From positions 49,910,001 through 49,974,000 of the forward strand of contig OZ024752.1 in the NCBI GenBank assembly GCA_964016885.1: a stretch of 64,000 bases of DNA, in the 5' to 3' direction. Positions 1 through 64,000 of this stretch are shown one piece after another. The notes beneath the pieces were generated by a model, which was not told where the DNA came from, ran no database searches, and worked only from the letters and a program-made list of their open reading frames with translations. Source of the stretch: Eledone cirrhosa (lineage: Eukaryota). Numbering within the stretch: the first letter of the stretch is position 1; every line of letters starts with the position of its first letter. The translations under genes were made by a program, and so were the position numbers.

Positions 1-3000
1 TAAAGATACTGGAGATGACCTGAAGATACAGTAAAGACACTGGAGATGACCTGAAGATACAGTAAAGACACTGGAGATGACCTGAAGATACAGTAAAGAC
101 ACTAGAGATGACCTGAAGATACAGTAAAGACACTAGAGATGACCTGAAGATACAGTAAAGATACTGGAGATGACCTGAAGATACAGTAAAGACACTAGAG
201 ATGACCTGAAGATACAGTAAAGACACTAGAGATGACCTGAAGATACAGTAAAGACACTGGACATGACCTGAAGATACAGTAAAGACACTGGACATGACCT
301 GAAGATACAGTAAAGACACTGGACATGACCTGAAGATACAGTAAAGACACTGGACATGACCTGAAGATACAGTAAAGACACTGGACATGACCTGAAGATA
401 CAGTAAAGATACTGGAGATGACCTGAAGATACAGTAAAGACACTGGACATGACCTGAAGATACAGTAAAGACACTGGAGATGACCTGAAGATTCAGTAAA
501 GACACTGGACATGACCTGAAGATACAGTAAAGACACTGGACATGACCTGAAGATACAGTAAAGACACTGGAGATGACCTGAAGATACAGTAAAGACACTG
601 GACATGACCTGAAGATACAGTAAAGACACTGGACATGACCTGAAGATACAGTAAAGACACTGGACATGACCTGAAGATACAGTAAAGATACTGGAGATGA
701 CCTGAAGATACAGTAAAGACACTGGACATGACCTGAAGATACAGTAAAGACACTGGACATGACCTGAAGATACAGTAAAGACACTAGAGATGACCTGAAG
801 ATACAGTAAAGACACTAGAGATGACCTGAAGATACAGTAAAGATACTGGAGATGACCTGAAGATACAGTAAAGACACTAGAGATGACCTGAAGATACAGT
901 AAAGATACTGGACATGACCTGAAGATACAGTAAAGACACTGGAGATGACCTGAAGATACAGTAAAGACACTAGAGATGACCTGAAGATACAGTAAAGATA
1001 CTGGACATGACCTGAAGATACAGTAAAGACACTAGAGATGACCTGAAGATACAGTAAAGACACTAGAGATGACCTGAAGATACAGTAAAGATACTGGAGA
1101 TGACCTGAAGATACAGTAAAGACACTAGAGATGACCTGAAGATACAGTAAAGATACTGGACATGACCTGAAGATACAGTAAAGACACTAGAGATGACCTG
1201 AAGATACAGTAAAGACACTGGAGATGACCTGAAGATACAGTAAAGACACTGGAGATGACCTGAAGATACAGTAAAGATACTGGAGATGACCTGAAGATAC
1301 AGTAAAGACACTAGAGATGACCTGAAGATACAGTAAAGACACTAGAGATGACCTGAAGATACAGTAAAGACACTGGACATGACCTGAAGATACAGTAAAG
1401 ACACTGGAGATGACCTGAAGATACAGTAAAGACACTGGAGATGACCTGAAGATACAGTAAAGACACTAGAGATGACCTGAAGATACAGTAAAGACACTGG
1501 AGATGACCTGAAGATACAGTAAAGACACTGGAGATGACCTGAAGATACAGTAAAGACACTAGAGATGACCTGAAGATACAGTAAAGATACTGGAGATGAC
1601 CTGAAGATACAGTAAAGACACTAGAGATGACCTGAAGATACAGTAAAGATACTGGAGATGACCTGAAGATACAGTAAAGATACTGGAGATGACCTGAAGA
1701 TACAGTAAAGACACTAGAGATGACCTGAAGATACAGTAAAGACACTAGAGATGACCTGAAGATACAGTAAAGACACTGGAGATGACCTGAAGATACAGTA
1801 AAGACACTGGAGATGACCTGAAGATACAGTAAAGACACTGGAGATGACCTGAAGATACAGTAAAGACACTGGAGATGACCTGAAGATACAGTAAAGACAC
1901 TAGAGATGACCTGAAGATACAGTAAAGACACTAGAGATGACCTGAAGATACAGTAAAGATACTGGAGATGACCTGAAGATACAGTAAAGATACTGGAGAT
2001 GACCTGAAGATACAGTAAAGATACTGGAGATGACCTGAAGATACAGTAAAGACACTAGAGATGACCTGAAGATACAGTAAAGACACTAGAGATGACCTGA
2101 AGATACAGTAAAGATACTGGAGATGACCTGAAGATACAGTAAAGATACTGGAGATGACCTGAAGATACAGTAAAGATACTGGAGATGACCTGAAGATACA
2201 GTAAAGACACTAGAGATGACCTGAAGATACAGTAAAGACACTAGAGATGACCTGAAGATACAGTAAAGACACTGGACATGACCTGAAGATACAGTAAAGA
2301 CACTGGACATGACCTGAAGATACAGTAAAGACACTGGACATGACCTGAAGATACAGTAAAGACACTGGACATGACCTGAAGATACAGTAAAGACACTGGA
2401 CATGACCTGAAGATACAGTAAAGATACTGGAGATGACCTGAAGATACAGTAAAGACACTGGACATGACCTGAAGATACAGTAAAGACACTGGAGATGACC
2501 TGAAGATTCAGTAAAGACACTGGACATGACCTGAAGATACAGTAAAGACACTGGACATGACCTGAAGATACAGTAAAGACACTGGAGATGACCTGAAGAT
2601 ACAGTAAAGACACTGGACATGACCTGAAGATACAGTAAAGACACTGGACATGACCTGAAGATACAGTAAAGACACTGGACATGACCTGAAGATACAGTAA
2701 AGATACTGGAGATGACCTGAAGATACAGTAAAGACACTGGACATGACCTGAAGATACAGTAAAGACACTGGACATGACCTGAAGATACAGTAAAGACACT
2801 AGAGATGACCTGAAGATACAGTAAAGACACTAGAGATGACCTGAAGATACAGTAAAGATACTGGAGATGACCTGAAGATACAGTAAAGACACTAGAGATG
2901 ACCTGAAGATACAGTAAAGATACTGGACATGACCTGAAGATACAGTAAAGACACTGGAGATGACCTGAAGATACAGTAAAGACACTAGAGATGACCTGAA

Positions 3001-6000
3001 GATACAGTAAAGATACTGGACATGACCTGAAGATACAGTAAAGACACTAGAGATGACCTGAAGATACAGTAAAGACACTAGAGATGACCTGAAGATACAG
3101 TAAAGATACTGGAGATGACCTGAAGATACAGTAAAGACACTAGAGATGACCTGAAGATACAGTAAAGATACTGGACATGACCTGAAGATACAGTAAAGAC
3201 ACTAGAGATGACCTGAAGATACAGTAAAGACACTGGAGATGACCTGAAGATACAGTAAAGACACTAGAGATGACCTGAAGATACAGTAAAGATACTGGAG
3301 ATGACCTGAAGATACAGTAAAGACACTAGAGATGACCTGAAGATACAGTAAAGACACTAGAGATGACCTGAAGATACAGTAAAGACACTGGACATGACCT
3401 GAAGATACAGTAAAGACACTGGAGATGACCTGAAGATACAGTAAAGACACTGGAGATGACCTGAAGATACAGTAAAGACACTAGAGATGACCTGAAGATA
3501 CAGTAAAGACACTGGAGATGACCTGAAGATACAGTAAAGACACTGGAGATGACCTGAAGATACAGTAAAGACACTAGAGATGACCTGAAGATACAGTAAA
3601 GATACTGGAGATGACCTGAAGATACAGTAAAGACACTAGAGATGACCTGAAGATACAGTAAAGATACTGGAGATGACCTGAAGATACAGTAAAGATACTG
3701 GAGATGACCTGAAGATACAGTAAAGACACTAGAGATGACCTGAAGATACAGTAAAGACACTAGAGATGACCTGAAGATACAGTAAAGACACTGGAGATGA
3801 CCTGAAGATACAGTAAAGACACTGGAGATGACCTGAAGATACAGTAAAGACACTGGAGATGACCTGAAGATACAGTAAAGACACTGGAGATGACCTGAAG
3901 ATACAGTAAAGACACTAGAGATGACCTGAAGATACAGTAAAGACACTAGAGATGACCTGAAGATACAGTAAAGATACTGGAGATGACCTGAAGATACAGT
4001 AAAGATACTGGAGATGACCTGAAGATACAGTAAAGATACTGGAGATGACCTGAAGATACAGTAAAGACACTAGAGATGACCTGAAGATACAGTAAAGACA
4101 CTAGAGATGACCTGAAGATACAGTAAAGATACTGGAGATGACCTGAAGATACAGTAAAGATACTGGAGATGACCTGAAGATACAGTAAAGACACTAGAGA
4201 TGACCTGAAGATACAGTAAAGACACTAGAGATGACCTGAAGATACAGTAAAGACACTGGAGATGACCTGAAGATACAGTAAAGACACTGGAGATGACCTG
4301 AAGATACAGTAAAGACACTAGAGATGACCTGAAGATACAGAAAAGACACTGGAGATGACCTGAAGATACAGTAAAGACACTAGAGATGACCTGAAGATAC
4401 AGTAAAGATACTGGAGATGACCTGAAGATACAGTAAAGACACTAGAGATGACCTGAAGATACAGTAAAGACACTAGAGATGACCTGAAGATACAGTAAAG
4501 ACACTGGAGATGACCTGAAGATACAGTAAAGACACTAGAGATGACCTGAAGATACAGTAAAGACACTAGAGATGACCTGAAGATACAGTAAAGACACTGG
4601 AGATGACCTGAAGATACAGTAAAGACACTGGAGATGACCTGAAGATACAGTAAAGACACTAGAGATGACCTGAAGATACAGTAAAGACACTGGAGATGAC
4701 CTGAAGATACAGTAAAGACACTGGAGATGACCTGAAGATACAGTAAAGACACTAGAGATGACCTGAAGATACAGTAAAGACACTGGAGATGACCTGAAGA
4801 TACAGTAAAGACACTAGAGATGACCTGAAGATACAGTAAAGATACTGGAGATGACCTGAAGATACAGTAAAGACACTAGAGATGACCTGAAGATACAGTA
4901 AAGACACTAGAGATGACCTGAAGATACAGTAAAGATACTGGAGATGACCTGAAGATACAGTAAAGATACTGGAGATGACCTGAAGATACAGTAAAGATAC
5001 TGAGATGACCTGAAGATACAGTAAAGACACTGGACATGACCTGAAGATACAGTAAAGACACTGGAGATGACCTGAAGATACAGTAAAGACACTGGAGATG
5101 ACCTGAAGATACAGTAAAGATACTGGAGATGACCTGAAGATACAGTAAAGACACTAGAGATGACCTGAAGATACAGTAAAGACACTGAGATGACCTGAAG
5201 ATACAGTAAAGACACTGGAGATGACCTGAAGATACAGTAAAGACACTGGAGATGACCTGAAGATACAGTAAAGACACTAGAGATGACCTGAAGCATACAG
5301 TAAAGACACTAGAGATGACCTGAAGATACAGTAAAGACACTAGACATGACCTGAAGATACAGTAAAGATACTGGAGATGACCTGAAGATACAGTAAAGAC
5401 ACTAGAGATGACCTGAAGATACAGTAAAGATACTGGAGATGACCTGAAGATACAGTAAAGATACTGGAGATGACCTGAAGATACAGTAAAGACACTGGAG
5501 ATGACCTGAAGATACAGTAAAGACACTATTAGATGACCTGAAGATACAGTAAAGACACTGGAGATGACCTGAAGATACAGTAAAGACACTGGAGATGACC
5601 TGAAGATACAGTAAAGACACTGGAGATGACCTGAAGATACAGTAAAGACACTGGAGATGACCTGAAGATACAGTAAAGACACTGGAGCATGACCTGAAGA
5701 TACAGTAAAGACACTGGAGATGACCTGAAGATACAGTAAAGACACTAGAGATGACCTGAAGATACAGTAAAGACACTGGACATGACCTGAAGATACAGTA
5801 AAGACACTAGAGATGACCTGAAGATACAGTAAAGACACTGGAGAATGACCTGAAGATACAGTAAAGACACTGGACATGACCTGAAGATACAGTAAAGACA
5901 CTAGAGATGACCTGAAGATACAGTAAAGACACTAGAGATGACCTGAAGATACAGTAAAGACACTGGAGATGACCTGAAGATACAGTAAAGACACTGGAGA

Positions 6001-9000
6001 TGACCTGAAGCATACAGTAAAGACACTAGAGATGACCTGAAGATACAGTAAAGACACTGGACATGACCTGAAGATACAGTAAAGACACTAGAGATGACCT
6101 GAAGATACAGTAAAGACACTGGAGATGACCTGAAGATACAGTAAAGACACTGGACATGACCTGAAGATACAGTAAAGACACTAGAGATGACCTGAAGATA
6201 CAGTAAAGACACTAGAGATGACCTGAAGATACAGTAAAGATACTGGACATGACCTGAAGATACAGTAAAGACACTGGACATGACCTGAAGATACAGTAAA
6301 GATACTGGAGATGACCTGAAGATACAGTAAAGACATGGACATGACCTGAAGATACAGTAAAGACACTGGACATGACCTGAAGATACAGTAAAGACACTAG
6401 AGATGACCTGAAGATACAGTAAAGATACTGGACATGACCTGAAGATACAGTAAAGACACTGGACATGACCTGAAGATACAGTAAAGACACTAGAGATGAC
6501 CTGAAGATACAGTAAAGACACTGGACATGACCTGAAGATACAGTAAAGACACTAGAGATGACCTGAAGATACAGTAAAGACACTGGACGATGACCTGAAG
6601 ATACAGTAAAGACACTGGACATGACCTGAAGATACAGTAAAGACACTGGACATGACCTGAAGATACAGTAAAGACACTGGACATGACCTGAAGATACAGT
6701 AAAGACACTGGACATGACCTGAAGATACAGTAAAGACACTAGAGATGACCTGAAGATACAGTAAAGATACTGGAGATGACCTGAAGATACAGTAAAGACA
6801 CTGGACATGACCTGAAGATACAGTAAAGACACTAGAGATGACCTGAAGATACAGTAAAGACACTAGAGATGACCTGAAGATACAGTAAAGATACTGGAGA
6901 TGACCTGAAGATACAGTAAAGACACTGGAGATGACCTGAAGATACAGTAAAGACACTATAGATGACCTGAAGATACAGTAAAGACACTGGAGATGACCTG
7001 AAGATACAGTAAAGACACTGGAGATGACCTGAAGATACAGTAAAGACACTGGAGCTGACCTGAAGATACAGTAAAGACACTGGAGCTGACCTGAAGATAC
7101 AGTAAAGACACTATAGATGACCTGAAGATACAGTAAAGACACTGGAGATGACCTGAAGATACAGTAAAGACACTGGAGATGACCTGAAGATACAGTAAAG
7201 ACACTAGAGATGACCTGAAGATACAGTAAAGACACTAGAGATGACCTGAAGATACAGTAAAGATACTGGAGATGACCTGAAGTTACAGTAAAGACACTAG
7301 AGATGACCTGAAGATACAGTAAAGACACTGGAGATGACCTGAAGATACAGTAAAGACACTAGAGATGACCTGAAGATACAGTAAAGATACTGGACATGAC
7401 CTGAAGATACAGTAAAGACACTGGAGATGACCTGAAGATACAGTAAAGACACTAGAGATGACCTGAAGATACAGTAAAGACACTAGAGATGACCTGAAGA
7501 TACAGTAAAGACACTGGACATGACCTGAAGATACAGTAAAGACACTGGAGATGACCTGAAGATACAGTAAAGACACTAGAGATGACCTGAAGATACAGTA
7601 AAGACACTGGAGATGACCTGAAGATACAGTAAAGATACTGGACATGACCTGAAGATACAGTAAAGACACTGGACATGACCTGAAGATACAGTAAAGACAC
7701 TAGAGATGACCTGAAGATACAGTAAAGACACTGGAGATGACCTGAAGATACAGTAAAGACACTGGAGATGACCTGAAGATACAGTAAAGACACTAGAGAT
7801 GACCTGAAGATACAGTAAAGACACTGGAGATGACCTGAAGATACAGTAAAGACACTGGAGATGACCTGAAGATACAGTAAAGACACTGGAGATGACCTGA
7901 AGATACAGTAAAGACACTAGAGATGACCTGAAGATACAGTAAAGACACTAGAGATGACCTGAAGATACAGTAAAGACACTGGAGATGACCTGAAGATACA
8001 GTAAAGACACTGGACATGACCTGAAGATACAGTAAAGACACTAGAGATGACCTGAAGATACAGTAAAGACACTAGAGATGACCTGAAGATACAGTAAAGA
8101 CACTAGAGATGACCTGAAGATACAGTAAAGACACTAGAGATGACCTGAAGATACAGTAAAGACACTGGAGATGACCTGAAGATACAGTAAAGACACTGGA
8201 CATGACCTGAAGATACAGTAAAGACACTAGAGATGACCTGAAGATACAGTAAAGACACTGGAGATGACCTGAAGATACAGTAAAGACACTGGAGATGACC
8301 TGAAGATACAGTAAAGACACTGGACATGACCTGAAGATACAGTAAAGACACTATAGATGACCTGAAGATACAGTAAAGACACTGGAGATGACCTGAAGAT
8401 ACAGTAAAGACACTGGAGATGACCTGAAGATACAGTAAAGACACTAGAGATGACCTGAAGATACAGTAAAGACACTGGACATGACCTGAAGATACAGTAA
8501 AGACACTATAGATGACCTGAAGATACAGTAAAGACACTGGACATGACCTGAAGATACAGTAAAGACACTATAGATGACCTGAAGATACAGTAAAGACACT
8601 GGAGATGACCTGAAGATACAGTAAAGACACTAGAGATGACCTGAAGATACAGTAAAGACACTGGAGATGACCTGAAGATACAGTAAAGACACTAGAGATG
8701 ACCTGAAGATACAGTAAAGACACTGGAGATGACCTGAAGATACAGTAAAGACACTGGAGATGACCTGAAGATACAGTAAAGACACTGGACATGACCTGAA
8801 GATACAGTAAAGACACTATAGATGACCTGAAGATACAGTAAAGACACTGGAGATGACCTGAAGATACAGTAAAGACACTGGAGATGACCTGAAGATACAG
8901 TAAAGACACTAGAGATGACCTGAAGATACAGTAAAGACACTGGACATGACCTGAAGATACAGTAAAGACACTATAGATGACCTGAAGATACAGTAAAGAC

Positions 9001-11142
9001 ACTGGACATGACCTGAAGATACAGTAAAGACACTATAGATGACCTGAAGATACAGTAAAGACACTGGAGATGACCTGAAGATACAGTAAAGACACTAGAG
9101 ATGACCTGAAGATACAGTAAAGACACTGGAGATGACCTGAAGATACAGTAAAGACACTGGAGATGACCTGAAGATACAGTAAAGACACTGGAGATGACCT
9201 GAAGATACAGTAAAGACACTAGAGATGACCTGAAGATACAGTAAAGACACTGGACATGACCTGAAGATACAGTAAAGACACTATAGATGACCTGAAGATA
9301 CAGTAAAGACACTGGAGATGACCTGAAGATACAGTAAAGACACTGGACATGACCTGAAGATACAGTAAAGACACTAGAGATGACCTGAAGATACAGTAAA
9401 GACACTGGAGATGACCTGAAGATACAGTAAAGACACTGGAGATGACCTGAAGATACAGTAAAGACACTGGAGATGACCTGAAGATACAGTAAAGACACTG
9501 GAGATGACCTGAAGATACAGTAAAGACACTGGAGATGACCTGAAGATACAGTAAAGACACTGGACATGACCTGAAGATACAGTAAAGACACTGGAGATGA
9601 CCTGAAGATACAGTAAAGACACTAGAGATGACCTGAAGATACAGTAAAGACACTAGAGATGACCTGAAGATACAGTAAAGACACTGGAGATGACCTGAAG
9701 ATACAGTAAAGACACTGGACATGACCTGAAGATACAGTAAAGACACTAGAGATGACCTGAAGATACAGTAAAGACACTAGAGATGACCTGAAGATACAGT
9801 AAAGACACTGGAGATGACCTGAAGATACAGTAAAGACACTGGAGATGACCTGAAGATACAGTAAAGACACTGGAGATGACCTGAAGATACAGTAAAGACA
9901 CTAGAGATGACCTGAAGATACAGTAAAGACACTGGAGATGACCTGAAGATACAGTAAAGACACTGGACATGACCTGAAGATACAGTAAAGACACTGGAGA
10001 TGACCTGAAGATACAGTAAAGACACTGGACATGACCTGAAGATACAGTAAAGACACTAGAGATGACCTGAAGATACAGTAAAGACACTAGAGATGACCTG
10101 AAGATACAGTAAAGACACTGGAGATGACCTGAAGATACAGTAAAGACACTGGAGATGACCTGAAGATACAGTAAAGACACTGGACATGACCTGAAGATAC
10201 AGTAAAGACACTGGAGATGACCTGAAGATACAGTAAAGACACTGGAGATGACCTGAAGATACAGTAAAGACACTAGACATGACCTGAAGATACAGTAAAG
10301 ACACTGGAGATGACCTGAAGATACAGTAAAGACACTGGAGATGACCTGAAGATACAGTAAAGACACTGGACATGACCTGAAGATACAGTAAAGACACTGG
10401 AGATGACCTGAAGATACAGTAAAGACACTAGAGATGACCTGAAGATACAGTAAAGACACTAGAGATGACCTGAAGATACAGTAAAGACACTGGAGATGAC
10501 CTGAAGATACAGTAAAGACACTATAGATGACCTGAAGATACAGTAAAGACACTGGAGATGACCTGAAGATACAGTAAAGACACTGGAGATGACCTGAAGA
10601 TACAGTAAAGACACTAGAGATGACCTGAAGATTCAGTAAAGACACTGGAGATGACCTGAAGATACAGTAAAGACACTGGAGATGACCTGAAGATACAGTA
10701 AAGACACTGGAGATGACCTGAAGATACAGTAAAGACACTGGAGATGACCTGAAGATACAGTAAAGACACTGGAGATGACCTGAAGATACAGTAAAGACAC
10801 TAGAGATGACCTGAAGATTCAGTAAAGACACTGGAGATGACCTGAAGATACAGTAAAGACACTGGAGATGACCTGAAGATACAGTAAAGACACTGGAGAT
10901 GACCTGAAGATACAGTAAAGACACTATAGATGACCTGAAGATACAGTAAAGACACTGGAGATGACCTGAAGATACAGTAAAGACACTGGAGATGACCTGA
11001 AGATACAGTAAAGACACTAGAGATGACCTGAAGATACAGTAAAGACACTGGACATGACCTGAAGATACAGTAAAGACACTGGAGATGACCTGAAGATACA
11101 GTAAAGACACTGGAGATGACCTGAAGATACAGTAAAGACACT
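1..11142. repeat. 31-bp tandem satellite (GGAGATGACCTGAAGATACAGTAAAGACACT), ~360 copies, continues beyond window start
   Basis: Direct 31-nt periodicity; variation mostly at three positions (gaC/Tac, ctG/Ag, gaG/Cat); no unique spacers. Confidence 0.99.
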
Positions 11143-31080: not shown

Positions 31081-34000
31081 TATATATTCTATAAGAAACT
31101 TCAGCCCAAACAACACTAGACTATATATTCTATAAGAAACTTCAGCCCAAACAACACTACACTATATATTCTATAAGAAACTTCAGCCCAAACAACACTA
31201 CACTATATATTCTATAAGAAACTTCAGCCCAAACAACACTAGACTATATATTCTATAAGAAACTCCAGCCCAAACAACACTACACTATATATTCTATAAG
31301 AAACTTCAGCCCAAACAACACTACACTATATATTCTATAAGAAACTTCAACCCAAACAACACTACACTATATATTCTATAAAAAAACTCCAGCCCAAACA
31401 ACACTACACTATATATTCTATAAGAAACTCCAGCCCAAACAACACTACACTATATATTCTATAAGAAACTTCAGCCCAAACAACACTACACTATATATTC
31501 TATAAGAAACTTCAACCCAAACAACACTACACTATATATTCTATAAAAAAAACTCCAGCCCAAACAACACTACACTATATATTCTATAAGAAACTCCAGC
31601 CCAAACAACACTTCACTATATATTCTATAAGAAACTTCAGCCCAAACATCACTAGACTATATATTCTATAAGAAACTCCAGCCCAAACAACACTACACGA
31701 TATATTCTATAAGAAACTTCAGCCCAAACAACACTACACTATATATTCTATAAGAAACTTCAGCCCAAACAACACTACACTATATATTCTATAAGAAACT
31801 TCAGCCCAAACAACACTAGACTATATATTCTATAAGAAACTTCAGCCCAAACAACACTAGACTATATATTCTATAAGAAACTCCAGCCCAAACAACACTA
31901 CACGATATATTCTATAAGAAACTTCAGCCCAAACAACACTAGACTATATATTCTATAAGAAACTCCAGCCCAAACAACACTAGACTATATATTCTATAAG
32001 AAACTTCAGCCCAAACAACACTACACTATATATTCTATAAGAAACTCCAGCCCAAACAACACTAGACTATATATTCTATAAGAAACTTCAGCCCAAACAA
32101 CACTACACTATATATTCTATAAGAAACTTCAGCCCAAACAACACTAGACTATATATTCTATAAGAAACTTCAGCCCAAACAACACTACACTATATATTCT
32201 ATAAGAAACTTCAGCCCAAACAACACTACACTATATATTCTATAAGAAACTTCAGCCCAAACAACACTAGACTATATATTCTATAAGAAACTTCAACCCA
32301 AACAACACTACACTATATATTCTATAAGAAACTTCAGCCCAAACAACACTAGACTATATATTCTATAAGAAACTTCAACCCAAACAACACTACACTATAT
32401 ATTCTATAAGAAACTTCAGCCCAAACAACACTAGACTATATATTCTATAAGAAACTTCAGCCCAAACAACACTAGACTATATATTCTATAAGAAACTTCA
32501 GCCCAAACAACACTAGACTATATATTCTATAAGAAACTTCAGCCCAAACAACACTAGACTATATATTCTATAAGAAACTTCAGCCCAAACAACACTAGAC
32601 TATATATTCTATAAGAAACTTCAGCCCAAACAACACTACACTATATATTCTATAAGAAACTCCAGCCCAAACAACACTACACTATATATTCTATAAGAAA
32701 CTTCAGCCCAAACAACACTACACTATATATTCTATAAGAAACTTCAGCCCAAACAACACTACACTATATATTCTATAAGAAACTTCAGCCCAAACAACAC
32801 TACACTATATATTCTATAAGAAACTTCAGCCCAAACAACACTACACTATATATTCTATAAGAAACTTCAACCCAAACAACACTACACTATATATTCTATA
32901 AAAAAAACTCCAGCCCAAACAACACTACACTATATATTCTATAAGAAACTCCAGCCCAAACAACACTTCACTATATATTCTATAAGAAACTTCAGCCCAA
33001 ACATCACTAGACTATATATTCTATAAGAAACTCCAGCCCAAACAACACTACACGATATATTCTATAAGAAACTTCAGCCCAAACAACACTACACTATATA
33101 TTCTATAAGAAACTTCAGCCCAAACAACACTACACTATATATTCTATAAGAAACTTCAGCCCAAACAACACTAGACTATATATTCTATAAGAAACTTCAG
33201 CCCAAACAACACTAGACTATATATTCTATAAGAAACTCCAGCCCAAACAACACTACACGATATATTCTATAAGAAACTTCAGCCCAAACAACACTAGACT
33301 ATATATTCTATAAGAAACTCCAGCCCAAACAACACTAGACTATATATTCTATAAGAAACTTCAGCCCAAACAACACTACACTATATATTCTATAAGAAAC
33401 TCCAGCCCAAACAACACTAGACTATATATTCTATAAGAAACTTCAGCCCAAACAACACTACACTATATATTCTATAAGAAACTTCAGCCCAAACAACACT
33501 AGACTATATATTCTATAAGAAACTTCAGCCCAAACAACACTACACTATATATTCTATAAGAAACTTCAGCCCAAACAACACTACACTATATATTCTATAA
33601 GAAACTTCAGCCCAAACAACACTAGACTATATATTCTATAAGAAACTTCAACCCAAACAACACTACACTATATATTCTATAAGAAACTTCAGCCCAAACA
33701 ACACTAGACTATATATTCTATAAGAAACTTCAACCCAAACAACACTACACTATATATTCTATAAGAAACTTCAGCCCAAACAACACTAGACTATATATTC
33801 TATAAGAAACTTCAGCCCAAACAACACTAGACTATATATTCTATAAGAAACTTCAGCCCAAACAACACTAGACTATATATTCTATAAGAAACTTCAGCCC
33901 AAACAACACTAGACTATATATTCTATAAGAAACTTCAGCCCAAACAACACTAGACTATATATTCTATAAGAAACTTCAGCCCAAACAACACTACACTATA

Positions 34001-35391
34001 TATTCTATAAGAAACTCCAGCCCAAACAACACTACACTATATATTCTATAAGAAACTTCAGCCCAAACAACACTACACTATATATTCTATAAGAAACTTC
34101 AGCCCAAACAACACTACACTATATATTCTATAAGAAACTTCAGCCCAAACAACACTACACTATATATTCTATAAGAAACTTCAGCCCAAACAACACTACA
34201 CTATATATTCTATAAGAAACTTCAGCCCAAACAACACTACACTATATATTCTATAAGAAACTCCAGCCCAAACAACACTAGACTATATATTCTATAAGAA
34301 ACTCCAGCCCAAACAACACTACACTATATATTCTATAAGAAACTCCAGCCCAAACAACACTACACTATATATTCTATAAGAAACTTCAGCCCAAACAACA
34401 CTAGACTATATATTCTATAAGAAACTTCAGCCCAAACAACACTAGACTATATATTCTATAAGAAACTTCAGCCCAACAACACTACACTATATATTCTATA
34501 AGAAACTTCAGCCCAAACAACACTACACTATATATTCTATAAGAAACTTCAGCCCAAACAACACTAGACTATATATTCTATAAGAAACTTCAGCCCAAAC
34601 AACACTACACTATATATTCTATAAGAAACTTCAGCCCAAACAACACTACACTATATATTCTATAAGAAACTTCAGCCCAAACAACACTACACTATATATT
34701 CTATAAGAAACTTCAGCCCAAACAACACTACACTATATATTCTATAAGAAACTTCAGCCCAAACAACACTACACTATATATTCTATAAGAAACTTCAGCC
34801 CAAACAACACTACACTATATATTCTATAAGAAACTCCAGCCCAAACAACACTACACTATATATTCTATAAGAAACTTCAGCCCAAACAACACTACACTAT
34901 ATATTCTATAAGAAACTTCAGCCCAAACAACACTACACTATATATTCTATAAGAAACTTCAGCCCAAACAACACTACACTATATATTCTATAAGAAACTC
35001 CAGCCCAAACAACACTACACTATATATTCTATAAGAAACTCCAGCCCAAACAACACTACACTATATATTCTATAAGAAACTTCAGCCCAAACAACACTAC
35101 ACTATATATTCTATAAGAAACTTCAGCCCAAACAACACTAGACTATATATTCTATAAGAAACTTCAGCCCAAACAACACTACACTATATATTCTATAAGA
35201 AACTTCAGCCCAAACAACACTAGACTATATATTCTATAAGAAACTTCAGCCCAAACAACACTAGACTATATATTCTATAAGAAACTTCAGCCCAAACAAC
35301 ACTACACTATATATTCTATAAGAAACTTCAGCCCAAACAACACTAGACTATATATTCTATAAGAAACTTCAGCCCAAACAACACTACACTA
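31081..35391. repeat. 41-bp tandem satellite, ~105 copies
   Basis: Unit TATATATTCTATAAGAAACTTCAGCCCAAACAACACTACAC. Confidence 0.99.
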
Positions 35392-55283: not shown

Positions 55284-55730
55284 ATCATCACCATCATCAT
55301 CATCATCATTTTATGTCTGCTTTTCCCCGCTTGCAAGGGTGGGACTGGTCCTATTCAGCACAATATCTCTCCACTTGTCGCGGTCCTTCGTACTCTCCTC
55401 AGTGAGTTTCAGCGATCTGAGGTCTGCTCTCACCACCTCCACCCATGTTTTTTGTGGTCTACCTCTACTGCGTCTTCCTTCTACTGGGATTTCTTGGCAC
55501 TTCTTTACCCAGCGGTTATCTTCCATGTGCATCACATGTCCATACCATCTCAGCCTTCTCTCCTGCACACCACAACTTATCCCTCTTATACCCAGTTTCT
55601 TTCTCAACTCATTTATGCTTGGTCATTCACACTCATTGACATTGCACATCCAACGGAGCATACTTGCTTCATTTCTCTCCAGCCGTCGCATATCTTCTGC
55701 ATTTGCTTCCCATGCCTCACTACCATGCTA
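55284..55730 (-). mobile_element. RTE LINE 3' fragment with (GAT)n tail
   Basis: HGSEAW...RRLERNEASMLRWMC...RRLRWYGHVMHM...VEGRRSRGRPQKTW; one in-frame stop. Confidence 0.92.
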
Positions 55731-57315: not shown

Positions 57316-58229
57316 AATTGTTTAAAAGATACAAAACTATTCATTTTAAAGTGTCTATCTTTATCTAACAAAAAACATCAACAACCTTCCATTGTAATTT
57401 CATATAAAAACTTTTGTTAAGTTATCTCCCAAATACCAACTTAATAATGAGAAATTTCGTTAAATTACTAAATCTTTCCAATATTTTAATTATTTTCAAA
57501 ATTATTTGAAATTCACAGTCAGTGTGTTTCATTAGAAATACGGTAATGAAAGAATTAATGATTAGAAAGTCAGTTATATTAGTAAATCTTGTCAAATTCT
57601 TATTTTCAAAGTTAGTAAACAATAAGCAGAGATTTTCCCCTAGAAATATAGTTCTAAAGGGGTTGAACAAACAACAAAAGCCACATTAAACAATACAGTC
57701 CTATTTACACTATACTGAAAGACACACAAACACAAAAACACACATACACACAAACACACAAACACACAAACACACAACAAAAAGATGGACTGATCATGGC
57801 TGGAATACTTTTGATGCATTGATTTGTCTGCTCAATCATCAATAACCTGGAAGGAGTGATGGGTGATAGTCTAGCTAACTACAGCAACAACAGCAACAAC
57901 AACAGCTATTCTACTAATAATCATTTGTTTTGGATTGCTAGTAAATCAGACAGTCAATCAAATTGTAGATTGAGGAGGACATTTTACTAATTACATTCTC
58001 TCCTTCATCACGGTTCTTCAGTTTAACTCACAAATTTAGTTAAACACTATCACATACACAGAATATTGCATGTGTCACTTGGTCACTTGATGCTTTCTAA
58101 TACCTTACGGCATTGATAAAATAAAGTACCAGTAATGTACTGGGTAATTGCTGGCCTTGTGCCAAAAGTAGAAACAATTATTACAGATTATACATGCATG
58201 CATGTGTGTATATATATATATATATATAT

Positions 58230-58480
58230 GGCGTAGGACAGAACAAAAGAGAGGCACAAAAACAAAGAAAAGATTCCCCAGTCACTGAAGAGGTCACAGA
58301 ATGTGTGACGAAAGAACTTTGACAATATATGAACAATCGTCTGGTTGTGAGACCAACCAACCAACCGGAAATTTCTAAATTCCTAAATTTATAAATTTAA
58401 TTTATAATAAATTGAAGTGAAAGCAACTGGTGCGTGTCTTTCTTATTGGCAACATGACCCTCCCAAAGTATAACAATATA
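58230..58480 (+). mobile_element. pLTR-like element with a hammerhead-like motif at 58281-58323, inserted in (TA)n
   Basis: GTCA-CTGAAGA-G-GTCACA gaatg TGTGAC-GAA-AG aa CT-T-TGAC; its 3' part is homologous to 39841-40024. Confidence 0.65.
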
Positions 58481-58847
58481 TATCATCATCATCATCATCA
58501 TCAACGTTTAACGTCCGTGTTCCACGCTTGCATGGGTTTGGATGGGGGTAGTCCCACTTGAGGCAAGAGTGATTGTCTTGCTCGCATAGGACTGTCTGGC
58601 AGGTTTTCTACAGTTGGATGCCCTTCCTAACACCAACCACATTTACAGTGTGGGTCTGGGAGGTTTTTACCGTGTTGCCTACACGGCCACATTACAGCGT
58701 GGACTGTGTGTTTTTTTGTCGTGACACCTACACGATCTCATTTGTTTCGGCCTCGATGGCGCGGCACCAACATAACTTTACATAGAACGGGGTGGTGTGG
58801 ATGGGGTGGGGGTGGGGGTGGTGGTGGTGGGACGGGGTGTATTTTGT

Positions 58848-58894
<47 letters not shown>

Positions 58895-58912
<18 letters not shown>

Positions 58913-61900
58913 GCGTATTCAAGTCCAAATAGCCATTCTATCGCTAAAACAAACTACATTTTCTGTTTCTATTAAGTGCTAAATACGTTTAGGTTTTTGG
59001 ACGTATTTAACTGAACAAATTTTGTATTTTTGTTAATCGCTTATTACCTTCTTGCTAGCTATTTTCAAACCTTAATTCCTAACGTATTTTCAAACCCCAA
59101 TCCCTAATTCTAACAAAAAAGCAAAATCCTTTCCTTCTTCCTTCTTCGAAGGCACGGGGCGGTCAAACGCCTAACACCCACAGCCATCATGTGGCCCCCT
59201 ACCCTCGCACTCTCTCTCTCTCTCTCCCTATAAATATATGATAGGAATTCACTTCGCCAAATTTCATTTCTTTGCCTGCTGTCCAAACGAAATTCATGTA
59301 AACGTAATGTACAGACTTCATCTCTCTCTCTCTCTCTCCTAGCGTATTCAAGTCCAAATAGCCATTCTATCGCTAAAACAAACTACATTTTCTGTTTCTA
59401 TTAAGTGCTAAATACGTTTAGGTTTTTGGACGTATTTAACTGAACAAATTTTGTATTTTTGTTAATCGCTTATTACCTTCTTGCTAGCTATTTTCAAACC
59501 TTAATTCCTAACGTATTTTCAAACCCCAATCCCTAATTCTAACAAAAAAGCAAAATCCTTTCCTTCTTCCTTCTTCGAAGGCACGGGGCGGTCAAACGCC
59601 TAACACCCACAGCCATCATGTGGCCCCCTACCCTCGCACTCTCTCTCTCTCTCTCCCTATAAATATATGATAGGAATTCACTTCGCCAAATTTCATTTCT
59701 TTGCCTGCTGTCCAAACGAAATTCATGTAAACGTAATGTACAGACTTCATCTCTCTCTCTCTCTCTCCTAGCGTATTCAAGTCCAAATAGCCATTCTATC
59801 GCTAAAACAAACTACATTTTCTGTTTCTATTAAGTGCTAAATACGTTTAGGTTTTTGGACGTATTTAACTGAACAAATTTTGTATTTTTGTTAATCGCTT
59901 ATTACCTTCTTGCTAGCTATTTTCAAACCTTAATTCCTAACGTATTTTCAAACCCCAATCCCTAATTCTAACAAAAAAGCAAAATCCTTTCCTTCTTCCT
60001 TCTTCGAAGGCACGGGGCGGTCAAACGCCTAACACCCACAGCCATCATGTGGCCCCCTACCCTCGCACTCTCTCTCTCTCTCTCCCTATAAATATATGAT
60101 AGGAATTCACTTCGCCAAATTTCTCCTAGCGTATTCAAGTCCAAATAGCCATTCTATCGCTAAAACAAACTACATTTTCTGTTTCTATTAAGTGCTAAAT
60201 ACGTTTAGGTTTTTGGACGTATTTAACTGAACAAATTTTGTATTTTTGTTAATCGCTTATTACCTTCTTGCTAGCTATTTTCAAACCTTAATTCCTAACG
60301 TATTTTCAAACCCCAATCCCTAATTCTAACAAAAAAGCAAAATCCTTTCCTTCTTCCTTCTTCGAAGGCACGGGGCGGTCAAACGCCTAACACCCACAGC
60401 CATCATGTGGCCCCCTACCCTCGCACTCTCTCTCTCTCTCTCCCTATAAATATATGATAGGAATTCACTTCGCCAAATTTCATTTCTTTGCCTGCTGTCC
60501 AAACGAAATTCATGTAAACGTAATGTACAGACTTCATCTCTCTCTCTCTCTCTCCTAGCGTATTCAAGTCCAAATAGCCATTCTATCGCTAAAACAAACT
60601 ACATTTTCTGTTTCTATTAAGTGCTAAATACGTTTAGGTTTTTGGACGTATTTAACTGAACAAATTTTGTATTTTTGTTAATCGCTTATTACCTTCTTGC
60701 TAGCTATTTTCAAACCTTAATTCCTAACGTATTTTCAAACCCCAATCCCTAATTCTAACAAAAAAGCAAAATCCTTTCCTTCTTCCTTCTTCGAAGGCAC
60801 GGGGCGGTCAAACGCCTAACACCCACAGCCATCATGTGGCCCCCTACCCTCGCACTCTCTCTCTCTCTCTCCCTATAAATATATGATAGGAATTCACTTC
60901 GCCAAATTTCATTTCTTTGCCTGCTGTCCAAACGAAATTCATGTAAACGTAATGTACAGACTTCATCTCTCTCTCTCTCTCTCCTAGCGTATTCAAGTCC
61001 AAATAGCCATTCTATCGCTAAAACAAACTACATTTTCTGTTTCTATTAAGTGCTAAATACGTTTAGGTTTTTGGACGTATTTAACTGAACAAATTTTGTA
61101 TTTTTGTTAATCGCTTATTACCTTCTTGCTAGCTATTTTCAAACCTTAATTCCTAACGTATTTTCAAACCCCAATCCCTAATTCTAACAAAAAAGCAAAA
61201 TCCTTTCCTTCTTCCTTCTTCGAAGGCACGGGGCGGTCAAACGCCTAACACCCACAGCCATCATGTGGCCCCCTACCCTCGCACTCTCTCTCTCTCTCTC
61301 CCTATAAATATATGATAGGAATTCACTTCGCCAAATTTCATTTCTTTGCCTGCTGTCCAAACGAAATTCATGTAAACGTAATGTACAGACTTCATCTCTC
61401 TCTCTCTCTCTCCTAGCGTATTCAAGTCCAAATAGCCATTCTATCGCTAAAACAAACTACATTTTCTGTTTCTATTAAGTGCTAAATACGTTTAGGTTTT
61501 TGGACGTATTTAACTGAACAAATTTTGTATTTTTGTTAATCGCTTATTACCTTCTTGCTAGCTATTTTCAAACCTTAATTCCTAACGTATTTTCAAACCC
61601 CAATCCCTAATTCTAACAAAAAAGCAAAATCCTTTCCTTCTTCCTTCTTCGAAGGCACGGGGCGGTCAAACGCCTAACACCCACAGCCATCATGTGGCCC
61701 CCTACCCTCGCACTCTCTCTCTCTCTCTCCCTATAAATATATGATAGGAATTCACTTCGCCAAATTTCATTTCTTTGCCTGCTGTCCAAACGAAATTCAT
61801 GTAAACGTAATGTACAGACTTCATCTCTCTCTCTCTCTCTCCTAGCGTATTCAAGTCCAAATAGCCATTCTATCGCTAAAACAAACTACATTTTCTGTTT

Positions 61901-61974
61901 CTATTAAGTGCTAAATACGTTTAGGTTTTTGGACGTATTTAACTGAACAAATTTTGTATTTTTGTTAATCGCTT
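58895..61974 (+). repeat. Tandem array of 429-bp monomers (7 units plus a partial; third unit 358 bp) at the 5' end of an RTE LINE
   Basis: TAGCGTATTCAAG at 58911, 59340, 59769, 60127, 60556, 60985, 61414 and 61843; units look identical by eye apart from the deletion. Confidence 0.97.
59156..59260 (+). promoter_or_regulatory. Putative Pol II promoter motifs in each monomer (GC box, CT tract, TATA box, Inr-like)
   Basis: GGGGCGG at 59156, (CT)n, TATAAATA at 59229 and TCACTT about 20 nt downstream; repeated in every full unit. Confidence 0.45.
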
Positions 61975-62078
61975 GTTAAATGCATAGACCCCTCTCAATC
62001 ATTACCTTCTTGCTAGCTACCCAACCTTCTTGCTAGCTACCCAACACCCCTCCCTCCCACCCCCACACACCACCATTG

Positions 62079-62156
62079 CTATTACGTGGACCAATCATAA
62101 AACAGAGCCCCCACGTATCACCAGTATTATTACGCGGACCAATCAGAAACCAGAGG
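62079..62156 (+). promoter_or_regulatory. Duplicated CCAAT-box motif in the LINE 5' UTR
   Basis: TATTACG(T/C)GGACCAATCA occurs twice, 48 bp apart (CCAAT at 62091 and 62139). Confidence 0.45.
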
Positions 62157-62209
62157 CCTATACTATCGCTTGCCTGGTTGCCTTTCGATATACGATATAT
62201 GATGGATGG

Positions 62210-64000
62210 ATGGACTGCGGAATCCTGGAGAGTGGAGGTGAGAGAGAAAAATCTGGACGCTCAGCGACAATGCCAAAGATAAAGACAAATTCACCCCTTG
62301 GACGAGAATGCGAGCACTCCTCATTGTTTCGACCGCGGACGGCTAACATAACCCCATCGCCCCCCGCCCCTCACCGCCCCCAACCCCCAAACGCAATCCA
62401 AAACTTCAGAGTTGGTACCATAAATGTAGGCACCCTAAAGGGTCGCGCTAACGAGGTTGTAGAAATGCTTGAACGTAAGGAGGTCGATGTTTGTTGTATT
62501 CAAGAGACCAGGTGGAGGGGTGGGTCTGCTAGGTTCATTGAGGGTAAAAAACGTTGTTATAAGCTTTTCTGGGTGGGAAACGACGATGGGCTGGGTGGAG
62601 TAGGAATCATGGTAGCAGAAAAGTGGGCAGATAAGATAATAGACGTAAATAGAGTGAACGACAGAATAATTAAAATACGACTTGTCCTCAATAGAACTAC
62701 GGTGACAGTAATATCTGCGTACGCACCCCAATCCGGACTGCCCGGCACTATAAAAGACAGATTCTATGAGACACTGATGCTCACTACCTCCCAAATATCT
62801 GACAGTGACTATATAATTATTGCAGGCGACCTAAATGGTCACGTTGGGCAACATTGTGACGGCTACGACGAAATCCATGGAGGCTATGGGTTTGGTACTA
62901 GAAATGAGGAAGGCTCCAGAATCCTGGAATTCTGTGATGCAAATAACCTAACTATCTGTAACACTAACTTCAAAAAACGTGACAATCACCTGATCACCTA
63001 TAGATCCGGGGAACACACAAGCCAGGTAGATTATATCCTTACCAGAAGACGTGACAGAGTGTCTGTTGTTAACACTAAATCCCTCCCCCATGAAGAATGC
63101 ACCTCCCAACATAGACTGATAATTAGCGACCTCATAGTCAGGACGAGACGTACTCGACAACAGAAGAGGACTATCCTCAGGAGGAAAATATGGAAGCTAA
63201 AGGACCCCACAGCCAGGAATAAATTTCAAAGCATATTACTTGATGCTTTCGACAGTAAGGAAGAACATTTAGAGTCGGACAATATAGAGGGAGAGTGGGA
63301 ATTTCTGAAAGCAAACCTGCTGTTGGCGACAGACGAGGTCTGTGGCTGGAGCAGGCCTGTAGGCAGGAGGAGAGTAACATGGTGGTGGAACAGTAAGGTG
63401 GAGGGGTCAATTAAGGCCAAAAAGCAGGCTTGGAAAGTATGGCGGGATGGGGGAAGTAGAGAGGACTATCAAGTGGCCAGGAGGGAAGCTAGGAGACAAG
63501 TGTACTTAGCAAGAAGGGAAGCTGAGGAAAGAAAGTTCAAGCATGTTCTACAACGCGATGACCAAAAACGTGAGGTGTTCAGGATTGCTAGGCAATGCGT
63601 CAAGGAAAACCGTGATATTGTCGGGGAGAAGTGTGTACTAAACGACGATGGCACACTTGCCATCACCGACGCTGATAAGAAGGTAGCTTGGAAGTGTCAC
63701 TATGAAAGGCTTCTAAATGAGGAGAATAATTGGGAGAAAGGCAGTCTCCCCCATATCGACCCAATAGAGGGACCAGCAGTGTTAGTCGAGGGGAGTATAA
63801 TAAGTAAGGCAATCAAGGATATGAAGACTGGTAAGGCGGCTGGGCCTTCGGAAATAGTTGCTGAGATGCTGAAGGCATCTGGCACGGTGGGACACACCAT
63901 GGTCACCCGCATAGTTAACCAAGTCGTACAGAACGGGGTTGTTCCGAAGGACTGGCATAGCAGCATCATCGTTAACTGTTATAAGGGTAAAGGAGACCCC
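62210..64000 (+). CDS. RTE-clade LINE ORF: AP-like endonuclease + linker + start of RT (open to window end)
   Basis: In-frame ATGs at 62210 and 62270; RVGTINVGTL, CCIQETRW, GVGI, SAYAPQ, GDLNGHVG, GFGTRNEEG, VDYIL, QHRLI, WWN, MKTGKAAGPSEI.AEMLK, VPKDW..SII..YKGKGD; no stop seen. Confidence 0.95.
   Translation, partial: MDCGILESGGEREKSGRSATMPKIKTNSPLGRECEHSSLFRPRTANITPSPPAPHRPQPPNAIQNFRVGTINVGTLKGRANEVVEMLERKEVDVCCIQETRWRGGSARFIEGKKRCYKLFWVGNDDGLGGVGIMVAEKWADKIIDVNRVNDRIIKIRLVLNRTTVTVISAYAPQSGLPGTIKDRFYETLMLTTSQISDSDYIIIAGDLNGHVGQHCDGYDEIHGGYGFGTRNEEGSRILEFCDANNLTICNTNFKKRDNHLITYRSGEHTSQVDYILTRRRDRVSVVNTKSLPHEECTSQHRLIISDLIVRTRRTRQQKRTILRRKIWKLKDPTARNKFQSILLDAFDSKEEHLESDNIEGEWEFLKANLLLATDEVCGWSRPVGRRRVTWWWNSKVEGSIKAKKQAWKVWRDGGSREDYQVARREARRQVYLARREAEERKFKHVLQRDDQKREVFRIARQCVKENRDIVGEKCVLNDDGTLAITDADKKVAWKCHYERLLNEENNWEKGSLPHIDPIEGPAVLVEGSIISKAIKDMKTGKAAGPSEIVAEMLKASGTVGHTMVTRIVNQVVQNGVVPKDWHSSIIVNCYKGKGDP

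Follow-up and report, generated by a model that had tools for sequence, protein, structure and literature searches.

In the Dictyostelium element TRE5-A, A-modules are arranged in tandem, and the Drosophila element HeT-A relies on a promoter in the copy upstream of it. In the mouse, long interspersed nuclear elements (LINEs) of the L1 family lose 5' monomer units with each jump, and the available portions of the papers that address it state as unresolved how these units are regained; several candidate routes are named (unequal crossing-over, replication slippage, second-strand mispairing, template switching) and no choice is made among them (PMC6454616; bioRxiv 10.1101/2022.08.06.500894). Mouse type A monomers, as described there, have a sharp common truncation site (PMC6454616). 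Here, we analysed a 64,000-nucleotide stretch of Eledone cirrhosa DNA (assembly GCA_964016885.1, contig OZ024752.1, forward-strand positions 49,910,001 to 49,974,000; hereafter the window) that holds a LINE of RTE type preceded by a tandem array of monomers. We favour, with some reservation, the explanation that this is a young and intact element whose family as a whole bears a tandem 5' monomer, that the monomer is likely a promoter, and that long arrays were most likely regrown in place. With hundreds of young copies, long units marked by locus, and growth from one unit, the question raised for mouse L1 becomes testable with population long reads.

The array occupies 58875–62019 of the window on the forward strand and runs straight into the 5' untranslated region (UTR) and open reading frame (ORF) of the element, as the initial annotation had proposed. 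The seven unit lengths measured from anchor to anchor were 429, 429, 358, 429, 429, 429 and 429 bp. The six 429-bp units showed zero base differences, CT tracts included, and the third was reduced to 358 bp by a 71-bp deletion at ~60123; the earlier description of near-identical units with matching CT lengths was thus accurate for six units and overlooked the deletion in the third. Counted in natural phase, the array opened with a 5' partial of 187 bp, followed by six upstream units and, last, one of 455 bp; this makes seven units plus a partial one, and not the ~7.3 units ending in a partial one that had been described, as the last unit is complete. GGGCGG, a CT tract and TATAAA were present in each of the seven units, in agreement with the GC box, CT tract and TATA box claimed for every unit. 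The 429-bp period given for the monomer was correct for this locus and limited to it, the period elsewhere in the genome being 450 to 535 bp. The last unit had also been said to take a 26-bp insertion, and here the direction has to be reversed: the 26 bp at 61975–62000 are ordinary monomer sequence that was lost from upstream units. The junction containing them had 333 exact matches genome-wide, many within arrays, vs 18 matches for the junction without them, which was limited to three loci, each on a different chromosome, and there to upstream units; all upstream monomers of the studied array lacked the piece, and the same loss occurred at two other loci. These three loci therefore inherited a two-part 5' end through RNA. 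In addition, 8 of 8 units of the studied array had lost 25 bp bounded by short direct repeats, a deletion found nowhere else in the assembly.

The monomer was a trait of the family. The start of the UTR had 331 exact matches genome-wide and a monomer word had 827. All 60 chromosome-1 loci selected by the UTR start alone had monomer sequence upstream, 23 of 23 best monomer loci ended at the junction with the element or at a variant of that junction, and 100 of the 100 listed among the 827 GC-box monomer matches chained to a body in the same orientation; no unlinked monomer, and so no free satellite, was seen among these 100. Accordingly, the expectation that the monomer consistently precedes this ORF in variable copy number held in near-full-length copies, and the occurrence as an unlinked satellite that would have spoken against it was not encountered in the matches listed. 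A census of monomer length covered 99 of 100 listed UTR starts (five pairs are local duplicates and not independent): 24 copies had <315 bp of monomer, 19 had 315–500 bp, 42 had 500–850 bp, 3 had 850–1400 bp and 11 had more, with a longest stretch of 10.3 kb. Most copies thus carried <1.7 units and a minority carried up to 22. Shared structure was found between loci: L031, L032 and L033, on three chromosomes, had a common deletion confined to upstream units, and L039 and L040 had the same upstream and downstream unit types.

Growth of the arrays could be followed from variants private to a locus. Of 21 arrays with at least three units, 14 carried variants fixed across their units that none of the other 124 loci had, and three variants checked genome-wide gave 8, 20 and 19 matches, each set confined to one array. 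Loci marked in this way include the studied one and those at C1:194.77 Mb and C2:144.07 Mb. Arrays had 25 singleton substitutions in 76 kb compared to 60 private changes in 73 kb of their own bodies (P = 4e-5; P = 0.005 when all 36 distinct array sites were counted), the private body counts being inflated by incomplete sampling. At L081, a 1547-bp unit is present three times; it joins ~800 bp of flanking host DNA, through the insertion junction, to monomer sequence, and its two complete periods are identical; because the repeat contains the host flank and the junction, this duplication postdates insertion. Overall, long arrays most likely regrew locally, after insertion, from one complete unit. 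A source absent from the assembly might explain one private variant but could hardly explain most arrays. The earlier suggestion of a self-renewing array therefore gained direct support in one part, regrowth at the locus, from the private variants and L081. Local growth was also probed through the phase of array 5' ends, which was uninformative (17 of 24 downstream of TATA+30 vs ~14 expected).

A body tree (84 of the first 96 loci) formed a single ladder, along which the monomer changed stepwise. A sister lineage, recognised through 153 exact matches to two alleles of the studied copy, was 4.6% apart at four-fold sites and had a homologous 635-bp monomer, 63–67% identical. Among 19 sister copies, 10 reached the UTR start with monomer, 8 were truncated downstream and 1 was unclassified; 3 of the 10 had arrays of at least five units. 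GCGGTCA, the TA run and an ATTCAC...TTCGCCAAA block were retained in both lineages. Four consecutive sister-lineage alleles inside the ORF of the studied copy (62782–62848) are read, from the alleles themselves, as recombination between the two lineages. Substitutions were compared in 78 of 125 copies, those suitable for alignment. Singleton changes were even across regions (1.3–2.1 per kb per copy), whereas variants present in at least three copies affected 19 of 121 sites in the monomer block AAGTCC...CGCTTG (window 61855–61976) vs 15 of 417 four-fold sites (Fisher P = 1e-5) and ~0.03 per site in the tether (the single-copy part of the 5' UTR) and 3' UTR; a few of the 19 adjoin indels. The monomer block therefore accumulated lineage-level substitutions at 4–5 times the rate of four-fold sites while having an ordinary singleton rate; either an escape from repression under selection or re-amplification with frequent errors could be responsible. 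The initiator block had 1 shared variant in 24 sites, partly by construction, as this block is the anchor. At the end of the last monomer, duplications of 20, 23 and 38 bp and the L081 breakpoint all lay at the CTTCTTGCTAGCTA unit end, which is a possible rearrangement hotspot (L031, L038, L065, L081, L123).

In 56 of the 99 unbiased copies, unrelated flanks were followed by >500 bp of monomer, roughly a period or longer. With over half of the copies retaining about one period or more, the transposing RNA would have to start within the second-last unit or upstream of it, and its sources would have more than one unit. Measured upstream of the body, 5' ends fell off from the 500–850 bp class to the 850–1400 bp class; TATA+30 of the second-last unit lies at ~810 bp, with an initiator-like word there, and the drop beyond ~835 bp fits this position as a putative start. 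Initiator-like words occur at TATA+22, +30 and +37 in the promoter-like block at 61660–61775. Monomer GC was 38%, not that of a GC-rich CpG island, and the CpG observed/expected ratio was 1.06 vs 0.38 for the window. The motifs by themselves say little: in 5000 shuffles of the unit, TATAWAW arose in 28% and a GC box in 7%. The monomer likely holds a promoter, and each unit may be a TATA-type promoter transcribing the next unit. Three other candidates were rejected: a start site at unit position 134, taken from BLAST ends, was an artefact of the 26-bp indel breaking the alignment; an intron in the unit, given that the CT-tract-AG acceptor look-alike is missing from the youngest subfamily; and a ribozyme or RNA-circle origin, as the monomer had no Rfam match and a weak fold (z = -1.45).

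Beside the inflated body counts given above, a number of observations weigh against this explanation. 5' ends occurred throughout the unit, somewhat more often in the AT-rich part, and no sharp common truncation site was apparent, unlike that described for mouse type A monomers in the part of PMC6454616 that deals with them. (AT)-flanked 5' ends at TATA+30 were found at only 3 loci genome-wide vs 0 at one control. TATAAA was present in 41 of 41 of the youngest copies, 3 of 27 of the middle ones and 0 of 12 of the oldest, which have a TA run; GGGCGG was present in 7 of 12 oldest copies and absent from the sister monomer examined. A TATA box with an initiator 28–33 nt downstream arose in 4% of the 5000 shuffles. 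Seven of 24 multi-unit copies started upstream of a TATA box, so that some RNAs would have covered more than two units. For growth in place, 3 of 5 apparent private body changes of the studied copy were sister-lineage alleles, owing to which a dating of the array by these five changes failed and was redone with both lineages, and daughters bearing the markers of three marked long arrays were not found in the assembly. Finally, unit counts rest on one assembly.

In the cycle that we propose, a source with at least two units would be transcribed from an upstream unit, and its daughters receive ~0.1–1.7 units; those with more than one period carry a direct repeat, from which arrays grow again at the new locus, perhaps by unequal exchange or replication slippage. 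Expansion would restore a multi-promoter source, very long arrays probably being overshoot and not main sources. A more far-reaching version, which in our judgement falls somewhat short of an even chance, is that a shrink-and-regrow RTE promoter evolved independently, units being lost with each transposition and re-expanded at the DNA level, and that this drives the 4–5-fold faster evolution of the monomer part and seeds element-attached satellites. Alternatively, long arrays may be functionless by-products of a duplication-prone genome, the monomer still being the element's own, extra units adding nothing, and the lineage being sustained by short sources of about two units or by transcription that reads through from promoters of the host. 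This would agree with several unrelated young minisatellite arrays in the window, an L081 duplication that ignores the monomer period, marked long arrays without daughters and the 85 of 99 copies with <850 bp of monomer; however, more than half of the copies have about one period or more, hence multi-unit sources, the tandem design was kept in both lineages, and multi-unit structure was inherited (the common deletion of L031/L032/L033; the same unit order in L039/L040), such that we consider it unlikely while giving it real weight.

Arrays could also have been built during insertion, through staggered second-strand priming or repeated template switching by reverse transcriptase (RT), as proposed for mouse L1. 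Used as a template, cDNA would likewise yield identical units with a private variant, the 5' region has many small duplications and deletions, and the sister-lineage patch makes template switching plausible. Nevertheless, arrays were less diverged internally than their own bodies, the L081 repeat includes a finished 5' junction and host flank, L040 and L059 contain blocks and interleaving of unit types that agree with exchange having recurred later on, and no ribozyme for an RNA circle was found; together these make such an origin improbable. The perfect identity of units might suggest that their number and identity are artefacts of assembly or polishing, which we regard as very improbable, because unit-specific differences such as the 71-bp deletion were resolved and 21 arrays had their own periods and variants. 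The head-to-tail junction was likewise recovered from 393 raw reads of another study and from a contig under a second organism label, both of which are silent on unit number; contig depth of monomer vs tether was not usable as copy number. A family-wide monomer, likely a promoter, with regrowth of long arrays in place remains the explanation that we prefer.

Downstream of the array, the intact-looking ORF seen in the initial annotation continued past the window as a single open frame of 1150 codons from stop to stop, or 1056 aa from the ATG at 62270. Pfam Exo_endo_phos, RVT_1 and PHD all fell within this one ORF, with no RNase H and no separate ORF1, and no other plus-strand ORF of 80 aa was found between array and main ORF. 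The ORF was followed by a 3' UTR of ~370 bp, a (GAT)7 tail and (AT)n; a (GAT)n tail rather than poly(A) was present at 34 of 36 loci, the remaining 2 being interrupted by gaps. By architecture alone, the element would be labelled an RTE-type LINE; the homologs listed, at least 120 at 33–54% identity, bear no clade name. An open frame of at least 1050 codons was found in 60 of 106 complete copies, and the element is young and intact. The tether region contains a local 20-bp duplication (62004–62045) and a 48-bp duplication. The studied copy is flanked by (TA)n on both sides, and (AT)n also follows the 3' tail at L031; with insertion into (TA)n tracts, no target-site duplication is readable at the studied copy. 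At L089 and L113, the 5' end directly abuts the (GAT)n tail of another family copy.

Table 1. Features of the monomer array and the LINE in the window (window coordinates).
Feature	Position	Strand	Remark
(TA)n run at 5' junction	58848..58874	.	(TA)n tracts are the insertion sites of the family
5' partial monomer, 187 bp, begins in TC tract lengthened to (TC)18	58875..59061	+	
Six upstream monomers (429, 429, 358, 429, 429, 429 bp)	59062..61564	+	
Junction of 71-bp deletion, third unit	60120..60125	+	
Last monomer, complete, 455 bp, retains 26 bp at 61975–62000	61565..62019	+	
Promoter-like block of last unit: GGGCGG (61660), CT tract, TATAAA (61732)	61660..61775	+	recurs in each unit; putative function
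5' UTR tether, single-copy	62020..62269	+	two CCAAT words (62091, 62139)
ORF, endonuclease part	62270..64000	+	runs past window into RT and PHD finger
Four consecutive sister-lineage alleles inside ORF	62782..62848	+	conversion or template switch

Other repeats were found near the array and elsewhere in the window. A 5'-truncated piece of 3' UTR from the same LINE family (58476–58849, reverse strand; 96–97% identical) faces the array in head-to-head orientation on the other side of the (TA)n run and is a separate, older insertion. Next to it, 58228–58483 represents the 3' end of a different element and matches, at 95% identity, the end of an element upstream of the LINE in L167; that element of L167 has RT and GIY-YIG-like domains and is presumably Penelope-like. 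Three retroelements are nested at one TA site. At 55434–55728 on the reverse strand lies an old remnant of the end of a related RTE ORF (69% identical). Young minisatellites (31 bp x 359 and 41 bp x 105, 96% match) occupy 1–11142 and 31081–35391, and the window also holds 47, 70 and 116-bp minisatellite arrays.

Compared to described systems, the element resembles RTE-2_OV and the Octopus bimaculoides RTE, octopus single-ORF RTE LINEs with a zinc finger, and the ~600-nt 5' UTR given for the octopus RTE is the typical length of a 1.x-unit copy here (PMC9115989). This comparison was made by description: the octopus element has 1109 aa vs 1056 aa, the available main text contains neither 'monomer' nor 'tandem', and a motif search of 4 of its 8 supplements gave no match, while the remaining supplements may hold the RTE-2_OV sequence. 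Tobacco SolRTE, of which part of the report was available, is likewise an RTE LINE with a conserved body and a fast-changing 5' UTR, but its non-homologous UTRs are replaced, and 'monomer' and 'tandem' are absent from that text (bioRxiv 10.1101/2022.11.04.512097). In the open-access literature, which leaves Repbase reports outside its scope, we found no published RTE monomer array. As far as the portions used describe it, Dictyostelium TRE5-A, a non-long terminal repeat element, similarly has a modular 5' promoter with a 200-bp A-module, and differs in its two ORFs, its targeting of tRNA genes and its shorter module (PMC3159450, PMC5633606).

The closest parallels were with rodent L1. Rat L1, with monomers of 600–650 bp, is similar in unit size and in having one or two units in most copies, but belongs to a different clade, and at most 2 units were reported in the parts available, compared to up to 22 here (PMC6454616; PMC5381506). 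Mouse L1Md A/Gf/Tf elements, according to the same kind of partial sources, share variable tandem 5' monomers with a ~250-bp single-copy tether to the ORF (PMC6454616; bioRxiv 10.1101/2022.08.06.500894; PMC5381506), daughters shorter than their sources, arrays that in rare cases are very long (50 monomers in mouse), rapid monomer turnover and a single ladder-like lineage. Unlike these, the element described here has a single ORF of RTE type and not the two ORFs of L1, no sequence homology being implied; its unit is 430–640 bp long, has 38% GC and is TATA-like instead of YY1-centred, the promoter being putative here; and within each locus its arrays are homogeneous and bear private markers, which is evidence of post-insertion growth. 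Should the unit act as a promoter, a design resembling that of mouse L1 would have arisen separately in a distant clade and phylum, and consensus sequences built from short reads of octopus RTEs would have concealed it.

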